Origin: an uncultured Pirellulales bacterium
Lineage (GTDB): Bacteria; Planctomycetota; Phycisphaerae; Sedimentisphaerales; Anaerobacaceae
Assembly (NCBI GenBank): GCA_964579055.1
Contig: CAZOFX010000003.1
Location: 39,551 to 103,550, forward strand
DNA: 64,000 bases
Direction: 5' to 3'
The notes below the pieces were generated by a model. The model was not told where the DNA came from. It was given only the letters and a program-made list of their open reading frames with translations, and ran no database searches. Within the stretch, counting starts at the first letter, position 1, and each line of letters begins with the position of its first letter. Positions 285-6,140 of this stretch are shown one piece after another. The translations under genes and the position numbers were made by a program.

Positions 285-2081
285 TCAGGCCGACGGCTTC
301 GCCGGCTTTCGGGCCCTGCGCTGTGCCAGGCCGACGACGGCGGGCACGACCAGGACCGTGACGAACGCGACCGCACAGCCGGTGTCCAGCCACTGGCCGC
401 GACGGCTGTAGAACGTCACCCTGCTGTCTATCGGCATTTTTTCGAGGAACCATCCGGATAGGCCGGTTCGTTGCATTGCTTGAGGAGGGAGCCCCTCGCT
501 CGATGCGATCGGGGCGCTGCGGATGCGGCCGGAAGAATCGATCAGGCAACTGATGCCTGTGTTGACGCTGCGCAGCACGGGAAGTCGGTTTTCCACCGCT
601 CGAAACACGCAAATGGCAGCGTGCTGGGGCAGTTCGGCGCTTGGGATCACGCGGGGCGGCTCGTCCAGAAAGCGGACGAACCAGCCGTCGTTGCTGATAT
701 TCACGAGCCAGTCGATGCGTTTTCGGCCCTTCTTATCGAGGGCGAAATTCCTGGCGACGTACGGGATTGCGTCCTCATAACAAATGATGGTGCCGAAGTG
801 ATACGTCGATTCGGACGTTTGCGGTGCGGCGTTCGGCTCGGCGCCGCGAATCGGCGTGGTCATTTCATAGACGGTGTAGTGTGTGCCGCGTTCAAGCGAA
901 TAATCGTAGTTGTATTCCTCCGGGGCGAAACGCTTGAGCTGCTGGTAAAGCCAGTTGAAGCTGCGGCGGAAGGGGATGTACTCGCCGAACAGGACCAGGT
1001 GGATCTTGTCGTAGCGGTTCGGGTCCTTCGTCCCATCGGGCCGATAAAGATAGGCCGCGTTGTACTGGCCTACGTAAAGCTTGTCTTGGGGGTCCTTCAT
1101 GATCTCGCCGCCGTAGGCGCCGACCAGCAAATAGGCGGTGTCCTTGGCGTGAGCGATCAAGGCCTCGTGGAAGGCCCTGTCCTCATTGGGGTCCTCAAAG
1201 TAGCGCCAAAGCTCGGGTTGGAGATAAGCCTGAACCATCGTTTCGGGCCAGGCGATCAACTCGGCGCCGGCCGCCGCAGCCGCCCGGCTCATCTCCAGCA
1301 GCTCGGCGAACAACTCATCGCTGGCCGCGTGGCTGATCTTGACCGACTGGGGCACGTTCGACTGAAGCGCCGCCACCAGCGGGCCGTCCGTGATGACCTC
1401 GGCCGTCTGCCTGATGCGCCAGTGCCCGTACAGCCACGTTGCGACCACCATTATTGCGACAGAGGCGATGAGTGGCAGCCTCAAGCGCAGCTTGGGGATG
1501 GCTCCCGGCACAGGCCATCCCCAAAGCCTTCGGCTTTGAGGCTGCCACAAGCCTGCCGTCCGCCATGCGATCCAATCCACAAGGACGCCGTTGACCGCCG
1601 CGACGACGAACGAGACGCCCGCGACGCCAAAGAGGTCGGCGATCTGGATCAGCGGGAGGTTGGCGTACTGGCTATGCCCCAGTAGACGCCAGAAGAAGCC
1701 GCCCAGCGGAAAGCCCTGGAGCCGTTCGGCGCCGACGACCAGAATGGGCAACGCCAACGCCATTGGGATGTTCCAGGCCCTGCAGAAGCGGATCGCCAAT
1801 GCCAGCAGGGGCCAGAGCAGGGCCAGGTAGACGCCCATCGCAAGCCAGCCGGCAATGGTGATTGGCGCGATCCAGCAGATGTTTGCCAGCCAGTAGATCG
1901 TGCCGACAAGCCAAGCCACGAGCGCCAGCGTTCGCGGTCGCACTTCGGGCCGGCACGCCAGGGCGAACGGCCCCATCGCCGCCCACGCGAGGAACGACCA
2001 ATCGACGGGCGCCTGGATCACGCTCAGCAGCACCGCCGAGGCGGCCAGCGGAACCACCAAAGACAATACCTTCCTGGTCAT
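285..2081 (-). CDS. lnt: Apolipoprotein N-acyltransferase
   Basis: N-terminal multi-TM region plus CN-hydrolase domain: WPET, YDKIHLVLFGEYIPF, ICYEDA, ISNDGWF, FRAVENR, RSVNTGIS. Confidence 0.96.
   Translation of the reverse strand: MTRKVLSLVVPLAASAVLLSVIQAPVDWSFLAWAAMGPFALACRPEVRPRTLALVAWLVGTIYWLANICWIAPITIAGWLAMGVYLALLWPLLALAIRFCRAWNIPMALALPILVVGAERLQGFPLGGFFWRLLGHSQYANLPLIQIADLFGVAGVSFVVAAVNGVLVDWIAWRTAGLWQPQSRRLWGWPVPGAIPKLRLRLPLIASVAIMVVATWLYGHWRIRQTAEVITDGPLVAALQSNVPQSVKISHAASDELFAELLEMSRAAAAAGAELIAWPETMVQAYLQPELWRYFEDPNEDRAFHEALIAHAKDTAYLLVGAYGGEIMKDPQDKLYVGQYNAAYLYRPDGTKDPNRYDKIHLVLFGEYIPFRRSFNWLYQQLKRFAPEEYNYDYSLERGTHYTVYEMTTPIRGAEPNAAPQTSESTYHFGTIICYEDAIPYVARNFALDKKGRKRIDWLVNISNDGWFVRFLDEPPRVIPSAELPQHAAICVFRAVENRLPVLRSVNTGISCLIDSSGRIRSAPIASSEGLPPQAMQRTGLSGWFLEKMPIDSRVTFYSRRGQWLDTGCAVAFVTVLVVPAVVGLAQRRARKPAKPSA
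1472..1548. repeat. Four-way-junction palindromic element, copy 1 (in frame inside lnt)
   Basis: Perfect 13-bp outer arms gtggcagcctcaa/ttgaggctgccac, inner arms ttggggatggc/gccatccccaa; matches copies at 16327 and 58437. Confidence 0.9.
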
Positions 2082-2350
2082 CGAGAATCGTCGCCGTCGT
2101 TGTTCAGGGCTCGGTTTCGCGGTTCAATCATGGCGACATTCTATAGCCTCAGCGACCTTTGGCAAGGGCCTGCCGCGATCCGGCGTCTCGGGCCACCCGT
2201 TCAATTAACCGCGAGAAACCTGAAGACGATGTAACACATGCTGCCGCCGTCCGTCTTAACCTCTGGCGAAGCGCAACACGGCTTCGTACGTTGGCAAAAA
2301 GGCGAGAAAGGTGCGGACACACTGGGTGCATACCTGAAAGGAGAGTCTCC

Positions 2351-2644
2351 ATGTGCAAGCTCGTTGATCTCAAAAGTGCCATCATTGGTGGACTGATCGT
2401 CTCGCTGGTGATCTGTGCGATCGGCGCCGTGCGTCACGCCTCGAGCGATGATTACGGGCGCTTCCAGATTGCGACGAATCCGGACCACGGCTTCGTCCTG
2501 GACACAGCTACGGGGCAGGTCTGGACACTTCAGACGGGGATCGCGGGCGGGATGGGGGTCATCAATACACCGCCGCACACCGAGTTGGAGTTCTACGATC
2601 CCAAGACCTACGACATCATCCCCGCGGACCCCAACTGGCCGTAA
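2351..2644 (+). CDS. Small hypothetical membrane-anchored/secreted protein
   Basis: ATG at 2351 after aaggagag; hydrophobic N-terminus, GRFQI...VLDTATGQVW. Confidence 0.7.
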   Translation: MCKLVDLKSAIIGGLIVSLVICAIGAVRHASSDDYGRFQIATNPDHGFVLDTATGQVWTLQTGIAGGMGVINTPPHTELEFYDPKTYDIIPADPNWP

Positions 2645-2793
2645 TTCGGCTGCTCGGCTGTCCATGTCCCTGTGACGCTTCGCGTATCTCGTCCGAGGGG
2701 ACTGGTCCCCGACAGGCAGGCCGGTTATCATGCTTCGTGCGTGGGACGAGAGGGCGGTACAGGCGTGGTCGTTTTGCGGGGTCCTCACAGGCT

Positions 2794-3447
2794 ATGGTGA
2801 CAGGGGTGTCGCAGGATGTGGTGGCGCGGTTCGTGGAGGCTTGTCACGAGGTCGGCCGGCGCGGGCTGGTGCGTTGCAGCAGTGGAAACCTCTCGCAGCG
2901 CATCGATGACGGGCGCATGCTCGTGACAGCGACGCGAAGCTGGCTGGGCCTGCTGACCAGCGAGGACGCAGCGCTGTGCCGGATCGAGGACGGCGCGTGC
3001 CTGGACGGCAGGCGCCCAACGGTCGAAGTGAACCTCCACGCCGGCATACTCCGCGCCCGGCCTGAGATCGACGTCGTGCTGCACTTCCAGTCGCCCCATG
3101 CGACGACACTGGCCTGCTGCGTTTCGCGTGACGTCAATTTCTTCGTGATCCCCGAAATCCCGTTCTACATCGGTCCGATCGGGCATGTGGCGTATCTGCC
3201 GCCCGGCTCGCAGGAGCTGGCCTGCGCAGTGGTTGAGGTGATGCGGGATCACAACCTGGCGCTGATGGCCAACCACGGACAGGTGACAGTCGCACAGGGC
3301 TTCGATCACGCAATCCAGAACGCCGAGTTCTTCGAACTGGCCTGCCAGACAATCGTCCAGGGAGGCGACAAGGTGACCCCGCTGCCCGACGAAGCCGCCC
3401 GCGAATTGATAGCCCTCGGCTCGAAGGCGACCCGCGCCGCCGTTTAA
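2794..3447 (+). CDS. Class II aldolase/adducin family protein
   Basis: SSGNLS, PTVEVNLHAGI, HFQSPHAT, MANHGQV motifs; start chosen at ATG 2794. Confidence 0.9.
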   Translation: MVTGVSQDVVARFVEACHEVGRRGLVRCSSGNLSQRIDDGRMLVTATRSWLGLLTSEDAALCRIEDGACLDGRRPTVEVNLHAGILRARPEIDVVLHFQSPHATTLACCVSRDVNFFVIPEIPFYIGPIGHVAYLPPGSQELACAVVEVMRDHNLALMANHGQVTVAQGFDHAIQNAEFFELACQTIVQGGDKVTPLPDEAARELIALGSKATRAAV

Positions 3448-3518
3448 TGCAGACCGTATCCACCTTCCGGGCATTGGATATGCGTCCGGTCGAATGCGAC
3501 ACAACCGGACCAGGAACG

Positions 3519-3539
3519 CTACCTGCGAATCGCAGGTAG
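3519..3539. repeat. Perfect 9-bp hairpin downstream of aldolase
   Basis: ctacctgcg-aat-cgcaggtag. Confidence 0.6.
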
Positions 3540-3571
3540 GTGTTGCGATAGATGGATTGGTTCCAGAAGCC

Positions 3572-3660
3572 GTAGGGTGTGCATCGCACACCACGTCAGG
3601 GAGATGCAATGGAATTGGTGTGCGACGCACACCCTACGCCGCCTGACACCCTACGCGGCC
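3572..3660. repeat. Inverted pair of GTAG REP-like hairpins (REPIN-like) plus partial third copy
   Basis: gtagggtgtgcatcgcacacc (3572-3592), ggtgtgcgacgcacaccctac (3617-3637), caccctacgcggc (3647-3659). Confidence 0.85.
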
Positions 3661-3839
3661 AGCGGCCTTTCTGGTGCGCGTATTGACCGCATTGATGACC
3701 GGGCGTGTTGCGGTCGAGACGCCCGTTGTGTTATTGTGTACTGTATGGCGAGTAGCCGTGCCGATTCAGACATTAGAGGCGGAGCCCCAGCCAACGAAGC
3801 TGTGATTGGCTGATCCAAGAGTGAGAGGAGAATTCCGCC

Positions 3840-4352
3840 ATGTGTACCGACCCCTCGGTGGACGACAAGAAGTATCGCCAGGCGCTGGAGCACTATGCGC
3901 TGGTATGTCAGGTAAGTGAGAACCTTCGCCAGAGATGCCCGGATGCGCCAGTATCTGAGAAAGAGGCGAAGACTATGGAGAGAGCCATGTCGCTGCAAGA
4001 GGATATTGACATGTGGCAGTGGGACACCCCGGACGCCGTCGTCGCGACCGAGGATCGCGAAGATGTTGAGAAAGTCATAGACAACATGTGTCAGGGGCCC
4101 CCCGCGTGGGTCCATGGGAGCATCCCCGATGTTCTGTTCGTGTCCTTCTCCAGTTTGCCTGCCGATAAGAAGAGTACGTTTAGTCGTAGTCCATGCGAGC
4201 GGACCACGATCTCGTTCTACAATGGGAATCGGTGCTTTGCCGACCTCCTGTTCTATTTTGACGCCCCTTTGGCGGCGGCAGGGCTGAGGATATACCTGTT
4301 CAAACACGAGGGCCGATGGAAGGTGTGCTATTGCAGCCTCTGGAGGTCCTAG
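3840..4352 (+). CDS. Hypothetical protein
   Basis: 170-aa ORF with gaggag RBS upstream; no recognisable family. Confidence 0.65.
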   Translation: MCTDPSVDDKKYRQALEHYALVCQVSENLRQRCPDAPVSEKEAKTMERAMSLQEDIDMWQWDTPDAVVATEDREDVEKVIDNMCQGPPAWVHGSIPDVLFVSFSSLPADKKSTFSRSPCERTTISFYNGNRCFADLLFYFDAPLAAAGLRIYLFKHEGRWKVCYCSLWRS

Positions 4353-4374
4353 GTCGAAGGGATGCGATAGCATC

Positions 4375-4400
4375 GGTGTGCGATGCACACCCTACGCGGC
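4375..4400 (-). repeat. GTAG REP-like hairpin
   Basis: ggtgtgcgatgcacaccctacgcggc; its first 21 nt are the reverse complement of 3572-3592. Confidence 0.85.
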
Positions 4401-4630
4401 TGGCCGACGCGACCGTCGCGGTCATGCGGAACCACAACCTTACGCTGATGGCCAATCATGGGCAAGTCACGGTTGCACGCGACTTCGACCATGCGATCCA
4501 GAACGCGGAGTTCTTCGAGCTGGCCTGCCAAATCATCATCGAAGGCGGTGACAAGGTGACGCCGTTGTCGGAGGAAGCCGCTCGCGAGCTGATGGACCTC
4601 GGGCAGAAAGCTGCGTGTGCGGCCGTTTGA
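4400..4630 (+). pseudogene. Orphan 3' fragment of class II aldolase (diverged duplicate of 3217-3447)
   Basis: 76 codons plus stop; 59/76 aa identical to the C-terminus of 2794..3447 by hand alignment; begins directly at the REP. Confidence 0.85.
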
Positions 4631-4656
4631 ATTGCGAGCGATAGACCGCGTGACGT

Positions 4657-5934
4657 TCAGTGCGACGCAGCCGCTGGACGGGGGCTGGCGTCGACGAGTT
4701 CGAGAATGTGCGCGACGAGGATCTCGCCGGTTCGCTCTCCCAGACACGTACGCGTGATGTACTCGTAGCGCTCGAAGCTGTCGAAGTCCTCCTTGGTGAG
4801 GATGTAGCCGAAGGCGTCGTTGGTCAGGCCGAGCAGGAAGTTGTGCCGGCCGTGCATCTTGCGCTTGAGGTAGTAGCCGATGTTGGGCAGCGCCTCGCCC
4901 GGGATCGTCGCCATCTGGGCGTCGCCGAGGTTCACCACGTGGATCCGTGTGGCGACGCCGCCCTCGTCGTCCAGCTTGAAGCCCAGCGGCGAGAGCTGCA
5001 CGACGGCGCGCAGCATGTCGTTCTCGACCGGCAAGCGGACGGTCGTGTTTTCGCACAGCATTGCTGGATCGTCCTGGATCGGTGCATCGCCGACGATGCG
5101 CAGCGCCTCATCGGCCAGCAGGTGGCCGATTCGAATGCACTCGTCCCACGTCCGCATGTCTTCGCCGTCCGGCCCGCGGCAGTCGGCGGTGACCATGCCA
5201 CCCTGTGCGGAGTTCATGAAGATTCCTGTGCCGCCGCCTTGGGCTTCGATCCGGTCGTACACGGGGCCGACGAAATCGGGACTGAGAATGCCCTGGTCCG
5301 AGCCGAGCACTTCCGGATGGCAGGCGTAGTTGACGAGTGTGGCGATTGGCTTGCGGTCCTGGCCGAGCACCTGGACGACGTGACATCGCGGATCGTACAG
5401 CTTCTCGGCGTAGTAGTTGTAGGCGATCTTGCCTTGAGCATTACCGGTGGCGATCTTGACCGCCGCCGGCTGGAGACCGGCGGCTGCGGCGTCGATCGCC
5501 TGCGCCAGCGCCGAACAGACGCTGTCGAGATAGGCCAGATCGCACGAGGTCCGGCCCGTCTGGTCGGGGAAGCCATAACAGTCGGGGGCGCTGTGCGTGT
5601 GCGTCGCGCCGATCAGGATGTTGTCGGCCGGCACGCGCGAGACCTGCGCGCGGACCTTCTCGCACAACACGCCCGGAAAGCCGAGGAAGTCGGTGCTGCA
5701 AATGGCGACGCGGGTCCCGTCCTGCTCCAGCACCAGCGTGCGGACAGTCAGCTCACCCATCTTCTTCGTTGTAGGACTGGATGGTCCAACCCCGCCCGAG
5801 ACGGGCAGCAGCTTCTCGGGCGTTACGCAGCGCACCGCAATCGCCGCGCGAAATTCGCCCGCCGCCGGCGCTACAGACAGTAAGCCCATCGCTGTTACGA
5901 CAAATGCTGCTCTTAGAAGTCGCCTGTGTCCCAT
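4657..5934 (-). CDS. Neutral/alkaline ceramidase-like secreted protein
   Basis: Signal peptide; ATHTHSAPD, NYACHPE, GEAL, GLTNDAFGY motifs. Confidence 0.8.
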   Translation of the reverse strand: MGHRRLLRAAFVVTAMGLLSVAPAAGEFRAAIAVRCVTPEKLLPVSGGVGPSSPTTKKMGELTVRTLVLEQDGTRVAICSTDFLGFPGVLCEKVRAQVSRVPADNILIGATHTHSAPDCYGFPDQTGRTSCDLAYLDSVCSALAQAIDAAAAGLQPAAVKIATGNAQGKIAYNYYAEKLYDPRCHVVQVLGQDRKPIATLVNYACHPEVLGSDQGILSPDFVGPVYDRIEAQGGGTGIFMNSAQGGMVTADCRGPDGEDMRTWDECIRIGHLLADEALRIVGDAPIQDDPAMLCENTTVRLPVENDMLRAVVQLSPLGFKLDDEGGVATRIHVVNLGDAQMATIPGEALPNIGYYLKRKMHGRHNFLLGLTNDAFGYILTKEDFDSFERYEYITRTCLGERTGEILVAHILELVDASPRPAAASH

Positions 5935-6140
5935 TTGCGCCTCCGTCACCGTGTCTTTCGGTCGTTGCGGGCACCTGAACCACTCCCATGATTATCAGTT
6001 CCGCACGCTCTGCGTCAAGCGGGCGCTTCTTGCGCTTCAAGATTCCTGGGACTCGCCCTTTCGAGTCGTTTCGGTCATACTGTAGGGAATTGCGGTGAAT
6101 CCAGCGCCGTGCGGACATGGTCTTGGAGATGGAGATAGCT

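Follow-up and report, generated by a model that had tools for sequence, protein, structure and literature searches.

The 64-kb window analyzed here, part of contig C3 of the uncultured planctomycete assembly G000 (GCA_964579055.1; 5.66 Mb, 197 contigs, 62.6% GC), carries an intact class II aldolase/adducin-family gene, a 170-amino-acid orphan gene bracketed by repetitive extragenic palindromes (REPs), and a second copy of the aldolase 3′ end. We interpret this locus as the probable scar of a one-sided, homology-facilitated illegitimate recombination (HFIR). An imported block of ~1.6 to 1.75 kb, from an unsampled lineage of the same genus, would have brought in, in this order, a complete aldolase allele (allele A), a terminator-like hairpin, an inverted pair of REPs (REPIN), the upstream region and the orphan gene, and a terminal REP. 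This block would have replaced the 5′ two-thirds of the resident aldolase, leaving the resident 3′ end behind as a relic. On the left, a homologous crossover would have taken place within the aldolase 5′ region or shortly before it, and the right end would be an illegitimate end-join at a GCTG microhomology. The REP end may have become the joint by offering, as a stable hairpin or repeat end, a favored end-point for incoming or processed DNA, rather than through cleavage by a REP-associated tyrosine transposase (RAYT). Positions refer to the window; G-numbers designate the genomes of relatives, L-numbers loci or metagenome contigs, and C-numbers contigs of G000.

The two aldolase 3′ ends

The intact aldolase gene (2794-3447, + strand, 217 amino acids) covers positions 2 to 182 of the 183 in the PF00596 model (E = 2.8e-36), a full-length domain match. 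As an earlier, sequence-only reading of this DNA had noticed, its last 76 codons and stop (copy A, 3217-3447, + strand) recur at 4400-4630 on the same strand (copy B), where a fragment without its own start and 5′ part matches PF00596 positions 137 to 182. The two copies align without gaps, with 59/76 identical amino acids (BLASTP, 3217-3444 versus 4400-4627, E = 2e-42) and a nucleotide identity of 75.4%. Their synonymous divergence (dS) is 1.44 and the ratio of nonsynonymous to synonymous divergence (dN/dS) is 0.09; almost all of their separate history was therefore spent as coding sequence under purifying selection, which bears out the earlier proposal that both copies once evolved as coding sequence.

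Copy B is nearest to G003 (85.5 to 87.6% nucleotide identity) and to the metagenome contig L049 (86.6%), while copy A is nearest to L038 and L050 (86%) and reaches 79% with G003 and G012 in the codon alignment, or 81 to 82% over shorter BLAST spans. A maximum-likelihood tree built from the 3′ ends places A with L038 at 79% support and B with G003 at 72%. Tree and identities identify the fragment at 4400-4630 as the resident allele and assign the 3′ end of the intact gene to a different descent, tied to the cassette-bearing lineage. The sequence-only reading had taken the fragment for the diverged copy; the roles are reversed, the fragment being the resident original and the imported 3′ end sitting in the intact gene. 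If the aldolase 3′ end had been duplicated in tandem on the spot, with the copies diverging there and the orphan inserting afterwards, this would explain why the copies lie in direct orientation and in the same register. Such a history is nevertheless extremely improbable: the dS between A and B is four times the divergence between the species of the clade, the two copies have different nearest relatives, and the relatives have no duplication.

The relatives also provide the arrangement that preceded the event. A single aldolase gene and no second fragment were found in 10 other genomes of the genus, and the stretches compared in these genomes held no match to the orphan (the orphan search covered 5 of them). 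The aldolase protein is 82 to 84% identical to that of the window in G003, G012, G009, G008, G010, and G001, and more distant in G011, G007, and G006. At the six loci that were read, those of the former group, the ceramidase-like gene lies directly after the aldolase, as the sequence-only reading had predicted for sister genomes, and window positions 4399-5900 are colinear with the aldolase 3′ end and the ceramidase gene of all six. In the window, this resident, convergent gene (4657-5949, - strand, 430 amino acids) has a weak PF04734 match and a dS of 0.35 to 0.37 to G003 and G012. In L049, an intact aldolase with a B-like tail adjoins the ceramidase gene, and the 70-nucleotide (nt) spacer that follows copy B is 98.6% identical to that of L049, which, on this comparison, effectively represents the pre-insertion state. 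These alignments establish an aldolase directly convergent with the ceramidase-like gene as the resident arrangement.

How far the import extends to the left can be gauged against the resident genes. The window, G003, and G012 are approximately equidistant in their Lnt, ceramidase, and Gfo genes (dS 0.28 to 0.37), and L038 is an outgroup to all three (dS ~0.5). The 5′ part of the aldolase shows a dS of 0.57 to 0.59 to G003 and G012, against 0.30 to 0.37 for the flanking resident genes, with a proportion of synonymous differences (pS) of 0.40 to 0.41 where 0.27 to 0.28 is expected (binomial p ~0.002). Since the 5′ part is too diverged for this baseline, the whole aldolase gene, beyond the 3′ end alone, was probably imported. 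The earlier proposal that an incoming segment replaced the 3′ end and brought a cargo gene thus stands for the new 3′ end and the cargo, and probably falls short in limiting the import to the 3′ end. Colinearity with G012 ends at position 2650.

In trees and dS, the middle block differs in descent from both flanks. The polarity of the event could in principle be the reverse: a resident of the L038 type (aldolase A-REPIN-orphan-REP) would have received a G003-like piece, running from inside the aldolase 3′ end through the ceramidase gene and beyond. Homology would have anchored this piece on its right, and an illegitimate join would have linked its left end to the REP end. The joint is symmetric and gives no direction, the aldolase alleles are mosaic, and lineages that share the left synteny, Lnt-small open reading frame (ORF)-aldolase (as in L050), also have the cassette-bearing arrangement. 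Yet the two flanks are equally G003/G012-like, with a dS of 0.30 to 0.36 at Lnt (at least 2 kb on the left) and of 0.32 to 0.37 at ceramidase and Gfo (at least 8 kb on the right), and the middle block alone is an outlier. Because only this block departs from its flanks, its import is the simplest reading, and we regard the reverse polarity as quite improbable.

Several observations weigh against an HFIR event as we reconstruct it. Segment identities, the 5′ tree, and upstream alignments did not locate the left crossover, and no sampled donor spans the 5′ part. Of the separate trees that the sequence-only reading had called for, that of the 5′ part was poorly resolved; its link to the G009 clade has 62% support. 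The sampled alleles are all remote from A (at most 86% nucleotide identity), which leaves the donor hypothetical; among 5.8e9 proteins, no aldolase allele exceeded 85% amino acid identity to that of the window, so the actual donor would be unsampled. Allele A and the spacers are ~12 to 18% diverged from L038 and the orphan 4%, an inequality that calls for more than one event or for a donor that had itself newly been given the cassette. A four-nucleotide microhomology, taken alone, is weak evidence. Finally, mosaic aldolase alleles across lineages blur the reconstruction of a single event.

Such mosaicism is apparent in the metagenome aldolase alleles, which are patchworks: P0037 joins an A-like AQGFDH motif to a B-like C terminus (MDLGQKAACAAV), and P0023 and P0079 carry an A-like QTIVQGG..PLPDE motif. 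This pattern indicates frequent intragenic recombination at the aldolase gene. Copy B itself, with a dN/dS of 0.16 to G003, lies inside the range of intact pairs and shows no decay; either the event is young compared with the divergence of the species, or 231 nt are too short for decay to show. We infer that the relic is non-functional.

The right-hand joint and the REP family

The right end of the imported block was delimited by comparing the window with L036 and L038 on one side and with G003 and G012 on the other. On the + strand, the window reads CACACCCTACGCGGCTG up to the joint and GCCGACGCG beyond it. The REP tail is CGCGGCT(G) in L036 and CGCGGCCGG in L038, and across the joint it reads CGCGGCTG followed by GCCGAC; the resident aldolase reads GGAGCTGGCC at the joint, and G012 reads GGAGCTGGCCGACGCG. 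Since the REP tail and codons 140-141 of the resident aldolase share the four nucleotides GCTG (4399-4402, + strand), the illegitimate crossover is placed within them. The aldolase homology begins at 4399/4400, right past the REP tail ending in CCCTACGCGG, so that the right joint lies where the terminal REP ends on its outer side and coincides with the 4-nt microhomology. The sequence-only reading had likewise let the fragment begin at the REP edge and had taken the REP to mark a breakpoint, and both points agree with this mapping.

The terminal element is a half-REPIN on the - strand (4353-4402), delimited by a palindrome scan and a three-lineage comparison. It consists of the REPIN spacer on the left, a REP at 4375-4395 (stem-loop 4375-4391, CTAC 4392-4395), and the tail GCGGCTG. 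In the three cassette-bearing lineages, homology is lost 5 to 7 nt beyond the GTAG side of this right REP, and unrelated sequences follow. With three lineages carrying three unrelated sequences beyond it, the GTAG-side REP edge is a recurrent boundary.

Could the joint be an artifact? A chimera of two co-occurring strains, produced during assembly or binning, has to be considered for a metagenome-assembled genome of 197 contigs, given that REPs are repeats open to assembler mis-joins and that related strains co-occur in metagenomes. However, an independently built Logan contig (SRR8925802_7621, 3353 bp) is 100% identical to window positions 1473-4825 and spans all of the junctions, which makes a chimera very improbable. 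Moreover, a mis-join at the REP would still require a REP beside aldolase codon 141 in a real genome, and an assembler joining wrongly through the homologous aldolase sequences would have produced a hybrid gene instead of the observed order.

The REPs at this locus belong to a genome-wide GTAG-type REP/REPIN family, as judged from a GTAG-tagged palindrome, copy numbers far above chance, and inverted pairs that fold as one hairpin. The window holds three copies of the palindrome GGTGTGCRNYGCACACC, all at this locus (3576-3592, 3617-3633, and 4375-4391), against ~0.13 expected by chance in the whole window. Together with the GTAG tag, it gives 58 matches at ~40 loci in the assembly and 1 in a reversed-sequence control; the consensus from 48 copies with at most one mismatch is (C)GTAGGGTGTGCACCGCACACC. 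Inverted pairs of GTAG-REPs were found on C3, C9, C12, C19, C22, C26, C71, and C132, and a REPIN query (C71:2257-2327) was matched in most genomes of the genus. The left REPIN of the locus (3570-3640), recognized by motif scan and folding, pairs a REP+ (3572-3592) with a REP- (3617-3637) across a 24-nt spacer, and the pair forms a single long hairpin on folding (-27 to -30 kcal/mol, z -6.3 to -7.5). Direct copies of the REP therefore stand on both sides of the orphan, as noted from the sequence alone, although the repeat is longer than given there: it includes the REPIN spacer as well as the REP- and measures ~45 nt (~3594-3640 and 4353-4399). A further repeat of ~100 nt (C71:1279-1394), which each genome of the genus carries in dozens of copies, is a family separate from the GTAG REP.

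Just past the aldolase stop lies a hairpin (3503-3535) of a second palindromic repeat family (ACCTGCGAATCGCAGGT), with other copies on C24, C65, C66, C142, and C22; in L038 and G012, too, a repeat of this family follows the aldolase stop. At 3641-3660 on the + strand, 17 nt of the REP tail (ACACCCTACGC; ACACCCTACGCCGCCTG and ACACCCTACGCGGCC) are duplicated in tandem, a duplication missing from the aligned L036 and L038. An Rfam search of 2600-4800 gave no match, and a consensus scan found no sigma-70-type promoter and one terminator-like match, within chance expectation. A 104-amino-acid ORF (4316-4630) begins in the 3′ end of the orphan, crosses the REP, and runs in frame into the aldolase relic; it is present among the gene calls of the Logan contig and is probably without function. 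Between lnt and the aldolase, a 97-amino-acid ORF with an N-terminal hydrophobic segment (2351-2644) is found also in G012, G006, and L050, and not in G003, and a FAD_binding_4 oxidase gene also lies upstream of the aldolase in G012 and L036. Since both differ between relatives, the left intergenic region is a variable spot too.

The orphan gene and its spread

The orphan protein has no Pfam or NCBIfam match, and its relatives are also without Pfam domains. A homologue with 53% identity (L035) stands in a different context without REPs, and the family has 18 members among 1.8e9 representative proteins. Among the relatives are several that are lipoproteins (LxxSC) or that have the domain as the C-terminal part of proteins of 340 to 516 amino acids; the orphan of the window starts at the position of the lipobox cysteine and has no signal peptide. 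Its AlphaFold model (pLDDT 82.8, pTM 0.78) comprises three long helices followed by a four-stranded sheet. The best matches in the PDB are AtzH, bile-acid 7-alpha-dehydratase, and other NTF2-like proteins, all weak (E ~3e-3, TM score 0.25 to 0.36), and the orphan would be a cytoplasmic, weakly NTF2-like protein. With a 53% homologue, 18 family members, and a model of this pLDDT, the orphan is, on comparative grounds, a real gene of a tiny uncharacterized family.

Near-identical copies of the orphan were found in only five metagenome contigs (L036 to L040); it was absent from 200 sampled genomes of the order and from a collection with one genome per species, and a scan of Joint Genome Institute (JGI) metagenomes matched L038 alone. 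L038, L039, and L040 carry the order aldolase (A-like)-hairpin-REPIN-upstream region-orphan-REP, then ~90 bp and the ceramidase gene, and lack the fragment. A more distant lineage (Lnt 79%, aldolase 79.5%), represented by L036 and L037, has the order FAD-oxidase-aldolase-REPIN-orphan-REP. The position downstream of the aldolase was seen directly in L036, L037, and L038, as L039 and L040 begin inside the spacer and match L038 there. In all five contigs, the near-identical cassette occupies the same REP-flanked setting. The REP-flanked homologues that the sequence-only reading had suggested looking for thus exist in other lineages. Relatives sharing the arrangement without REPs, which would have spoken against that reading, were not encountered: orphan carriers always had the REPs, and the others had none.

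The cassette is much younger than its surroundings. The orphan coding sequence (CDS) shows a dS of 0.07 to 0.14 among the window, L038, and L036 (dN/dS 0.23 to 0.43), with substitutions mostly at third codon positions, whereas dS is 0.45 to 0.67 for the adjacent aldolase and 0.50 for ceramidase (window versus L038); the contrast with the orphan has p = 9e-11. The low-divergence core (3803-4352, + strand), made up of the ribosome-binding site (RBS) GAGAGGAG and the orphan CDS (3840-4352), is 96.1% identical to L038 and 94.3% to L036 at the nucleotide level. The upstream region on its left (3661-3802, + strand) has ~82% identity with L038 and is absent from L036. Mismatches to L038 fall from 8 to 14 to ~2 per 50 nt at ~3808 and rise again at the REP, so that the block is sharply bounded (~3803-4358), and the homology to L036 begins at the same place. 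With an orphan dS well below the flanking dS, the RBS-CDS unit has passed between three or more diverged lineages at a much later date than its neighbors. As these divergences demonstrate, the orphan CDS has spread horizontally and recently.

Such a mobile unit invites an enzymatic explanation, and the sequence-only reading had indeed proposed REP/RAYT-associated cassette capture. A RAYT-type Y1 (HUH) enzyme would excise and integrate a unit of RBS, orphan, spacer, and REP, cutting a few bases 5′ of the GTAG on the REP strand; alternatively, a circular cassette would recombine in Campbell fashion with a REPIN half-site. One such event would have joined the REP end to the resident aldolase. The L036 cassette fits this scheme, lying between ~45-nt direct repeats (spacer and REP-), with the left REP tail GCGGCTG directly at the orphan RBS, and so do the different DNA past the GTAG side of the right REP in all three lineages, a core 4 to 6 times less diverged than its flanks at synonymous sites, and other REP-bounded variable slots on C22 and C177. 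The minus-strand joint, GGC followed by CAGCCGCGTAG, holds a CA dinucleotide, which is suggestive only. TnpAREP enzymes cleave CT or CA dinucleotides lying 5′ and 3′ of REPs, and the GTAG helps one group 3 enzyme to choose the site (PMC8266576).

The genome does contain RAYT-like genes, which the sequence-only reading had proposed to look for. PF01797 matches with RAYT-like ORFs lie at C9:62670-63416 (L003) and C130:11385-12092 (L002), with a pseudogene at C21:25663-25920 (L001), and a fourth, weaker match falls inside a 1227-amino-acid ORF on C67. The C9 and C130 genes are ~97% identical over 505 nt and share the HUH motif NHVHLV; the C21 copy is broken by a TGA stop. Multi-copy RAYTs are unusual. 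The RAYT-like ORFs score 72 bits on the REP-associated tyrosine transposase model (NF047646), under its cut-off of 80, and 19 to 22 bits on IS200. However, no REP of the GTAG family lies within 1.5 kb of them, inverted repeats were not detected at their flanks, and the 77-nt Lnt repeat has no match to these loci. A transposing unit should show several sites, but the cassette is single-copy in G000, and each of the five carrying contigs has it at this one locus, after the aldolase. In addition, the left boundary of the conserved core (~3803) lies 140 to 165 nt from the REPIN in the window and L038, the empty sites of the relatives have no REP target, and movement of cargo genes by RAYTs is unreported in the excerpts of the REP/RAYT literature surveyed. 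With no test in support of RAYT involvement, we consider capture by such an enzyme unlikely and retain HFIR for the formation of the locus.

REP-bounded slots and known systems

Three further sites with REPs 0.8 to 2.5 kb apart are all variable between genomes. At C22:32168-34742 (L044), a REP+ REP- pair, cargo, and a REP- follow one another; the cargo in G000 is an MNT/HEPN toxin-antitoxin-like pair with two ORFs, while the same site in G003 (C85, L046) holds a 499-amino-acid HD-domain protein and a 188-amino-acid ORF. The two genomes cease to be homologous 4 nt beyond the REPIN and become so again 4 nt beyond the right REP; a ~60-nt post-REP segment is duplicated in G003 at this site. The single gene between REPs at C177:1594-2692 (L042) is kept in G005 and replaced by another gene in G002. 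At C71:1422-2326 (L043), again a single gene between REPs, G003 and G005 have 3.4 kb beside the REP that G000 lacks. Variability at the REPs of C22, C177, and C71, along with an orphan cassette 4 to 6 times younger than its flanks in three lineages, hints that GTAG-REPs might serve as portable recombination sites bounding exchangeable gene slots in the genus, loosely like attC. Cargo and terminal REP would be swapped in and out beside a resident REP or REPIN, through RAYT cleavage 5′ of the GTAG or recombination across the 45-nt half-REPIN, and the aldolase scar would be one misdirected swap. We hold this generalization to be doubtful, and give a REP-based cassette-exchange mechanism behind the locus a modest chance.

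The value of the locus lies in having the pre-insertion (L049, G003), donor-type (L038), and product states all at hand, with a joint readable to the base. Displacement of a 3′ end, familiar from toxin loci, would here have affected an ordinary metabolic gene. A REP edge is tied to a recombination joint, and a REP-flanked orphan moves between lineages faster than its neighbors. If the association with REPs proved general, these elements would organize accessory-gene exchange, a role not yet established for them.

The closest known process is HFIR, reportedly described by de Vries and Wackernagel in 2002, Prudhomme et al. in 2002, and Meier and Wackernagel in 2003. It combines a homologous anchor on one side with an illegitimate microhomology joint on the other, as summarized in PMC3240628 and PMC5361080. 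A short GC-rich microhomology joint, foreign DNA beside a homologous gene, and partial retention of the resident sequence are features in common. HFIR was seen experimentally, whereas our case is inferred from comparative genomics in an uncultured planctomycete, with the anchor crossover not placed, and in it the illegitimate end falls at the border of a REP hairpin.

As described in PMC5361080, which cites Poole et al. 2011 (PMC3150448), the effector loci of Rhs, contact-dependent inhibition (CDI), and type VI secretion systems (T6SS) show the same succession of a conserved 5′ part, a new 3′ end, a small gene, and an old 3′ relic. In contrast to those polymorphic toxins, the gene concerned here is a metabolic class II aldolase, its two 3′ ends are allelic (78% amino acid identity) rather than unrelated toxin domains, and nothing marks the small gene as an immunity protein. 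The REP/REPIN-RAYT systems (PMC2817692, PMC3733652, PMC8266576) share with the present family the GTAG tag followed by a 7-bp stem and a 3-nt loop, the scatter over tens of apparently intergenic sites, frequently as inverted pairs, and the RAYT-like Y1 genes in the genome. Compared with those systems, the copy number here is modest (~50), the RAYT-like genes occur in several copies without the GTAG REP at their sides, and the REPs bracket protein-coding cargo and coincide with homology breakpoints between genomes.

The minimal mobile elements of Neisseria, reportedly described by Saunders and Snyder (2002), are whole-gene cassettes that differ by strain between conserved flanks and have no mobility gene of their own. 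Exchange presumably proceeds there, as here, by DNA uptake and recombination; the slot edges of our system are REPs, however, and the event in the window would have ended illegitimately inside a flanking gene. Integron cassettes with their attC hairpins, IS200/IS605 elements, and PATE are alike in form only, through a short ORF with its RBS and a terminal hairpin repeat, and direct repeats at both ends (L036); unlike them, the cassette has no integrase, attI, cassette array, tnpA/tnpB within the unit, or second insertion site. Set against these systems, the locus is a well-documented new example of a known gene-gain process rather than an unprecedented one.

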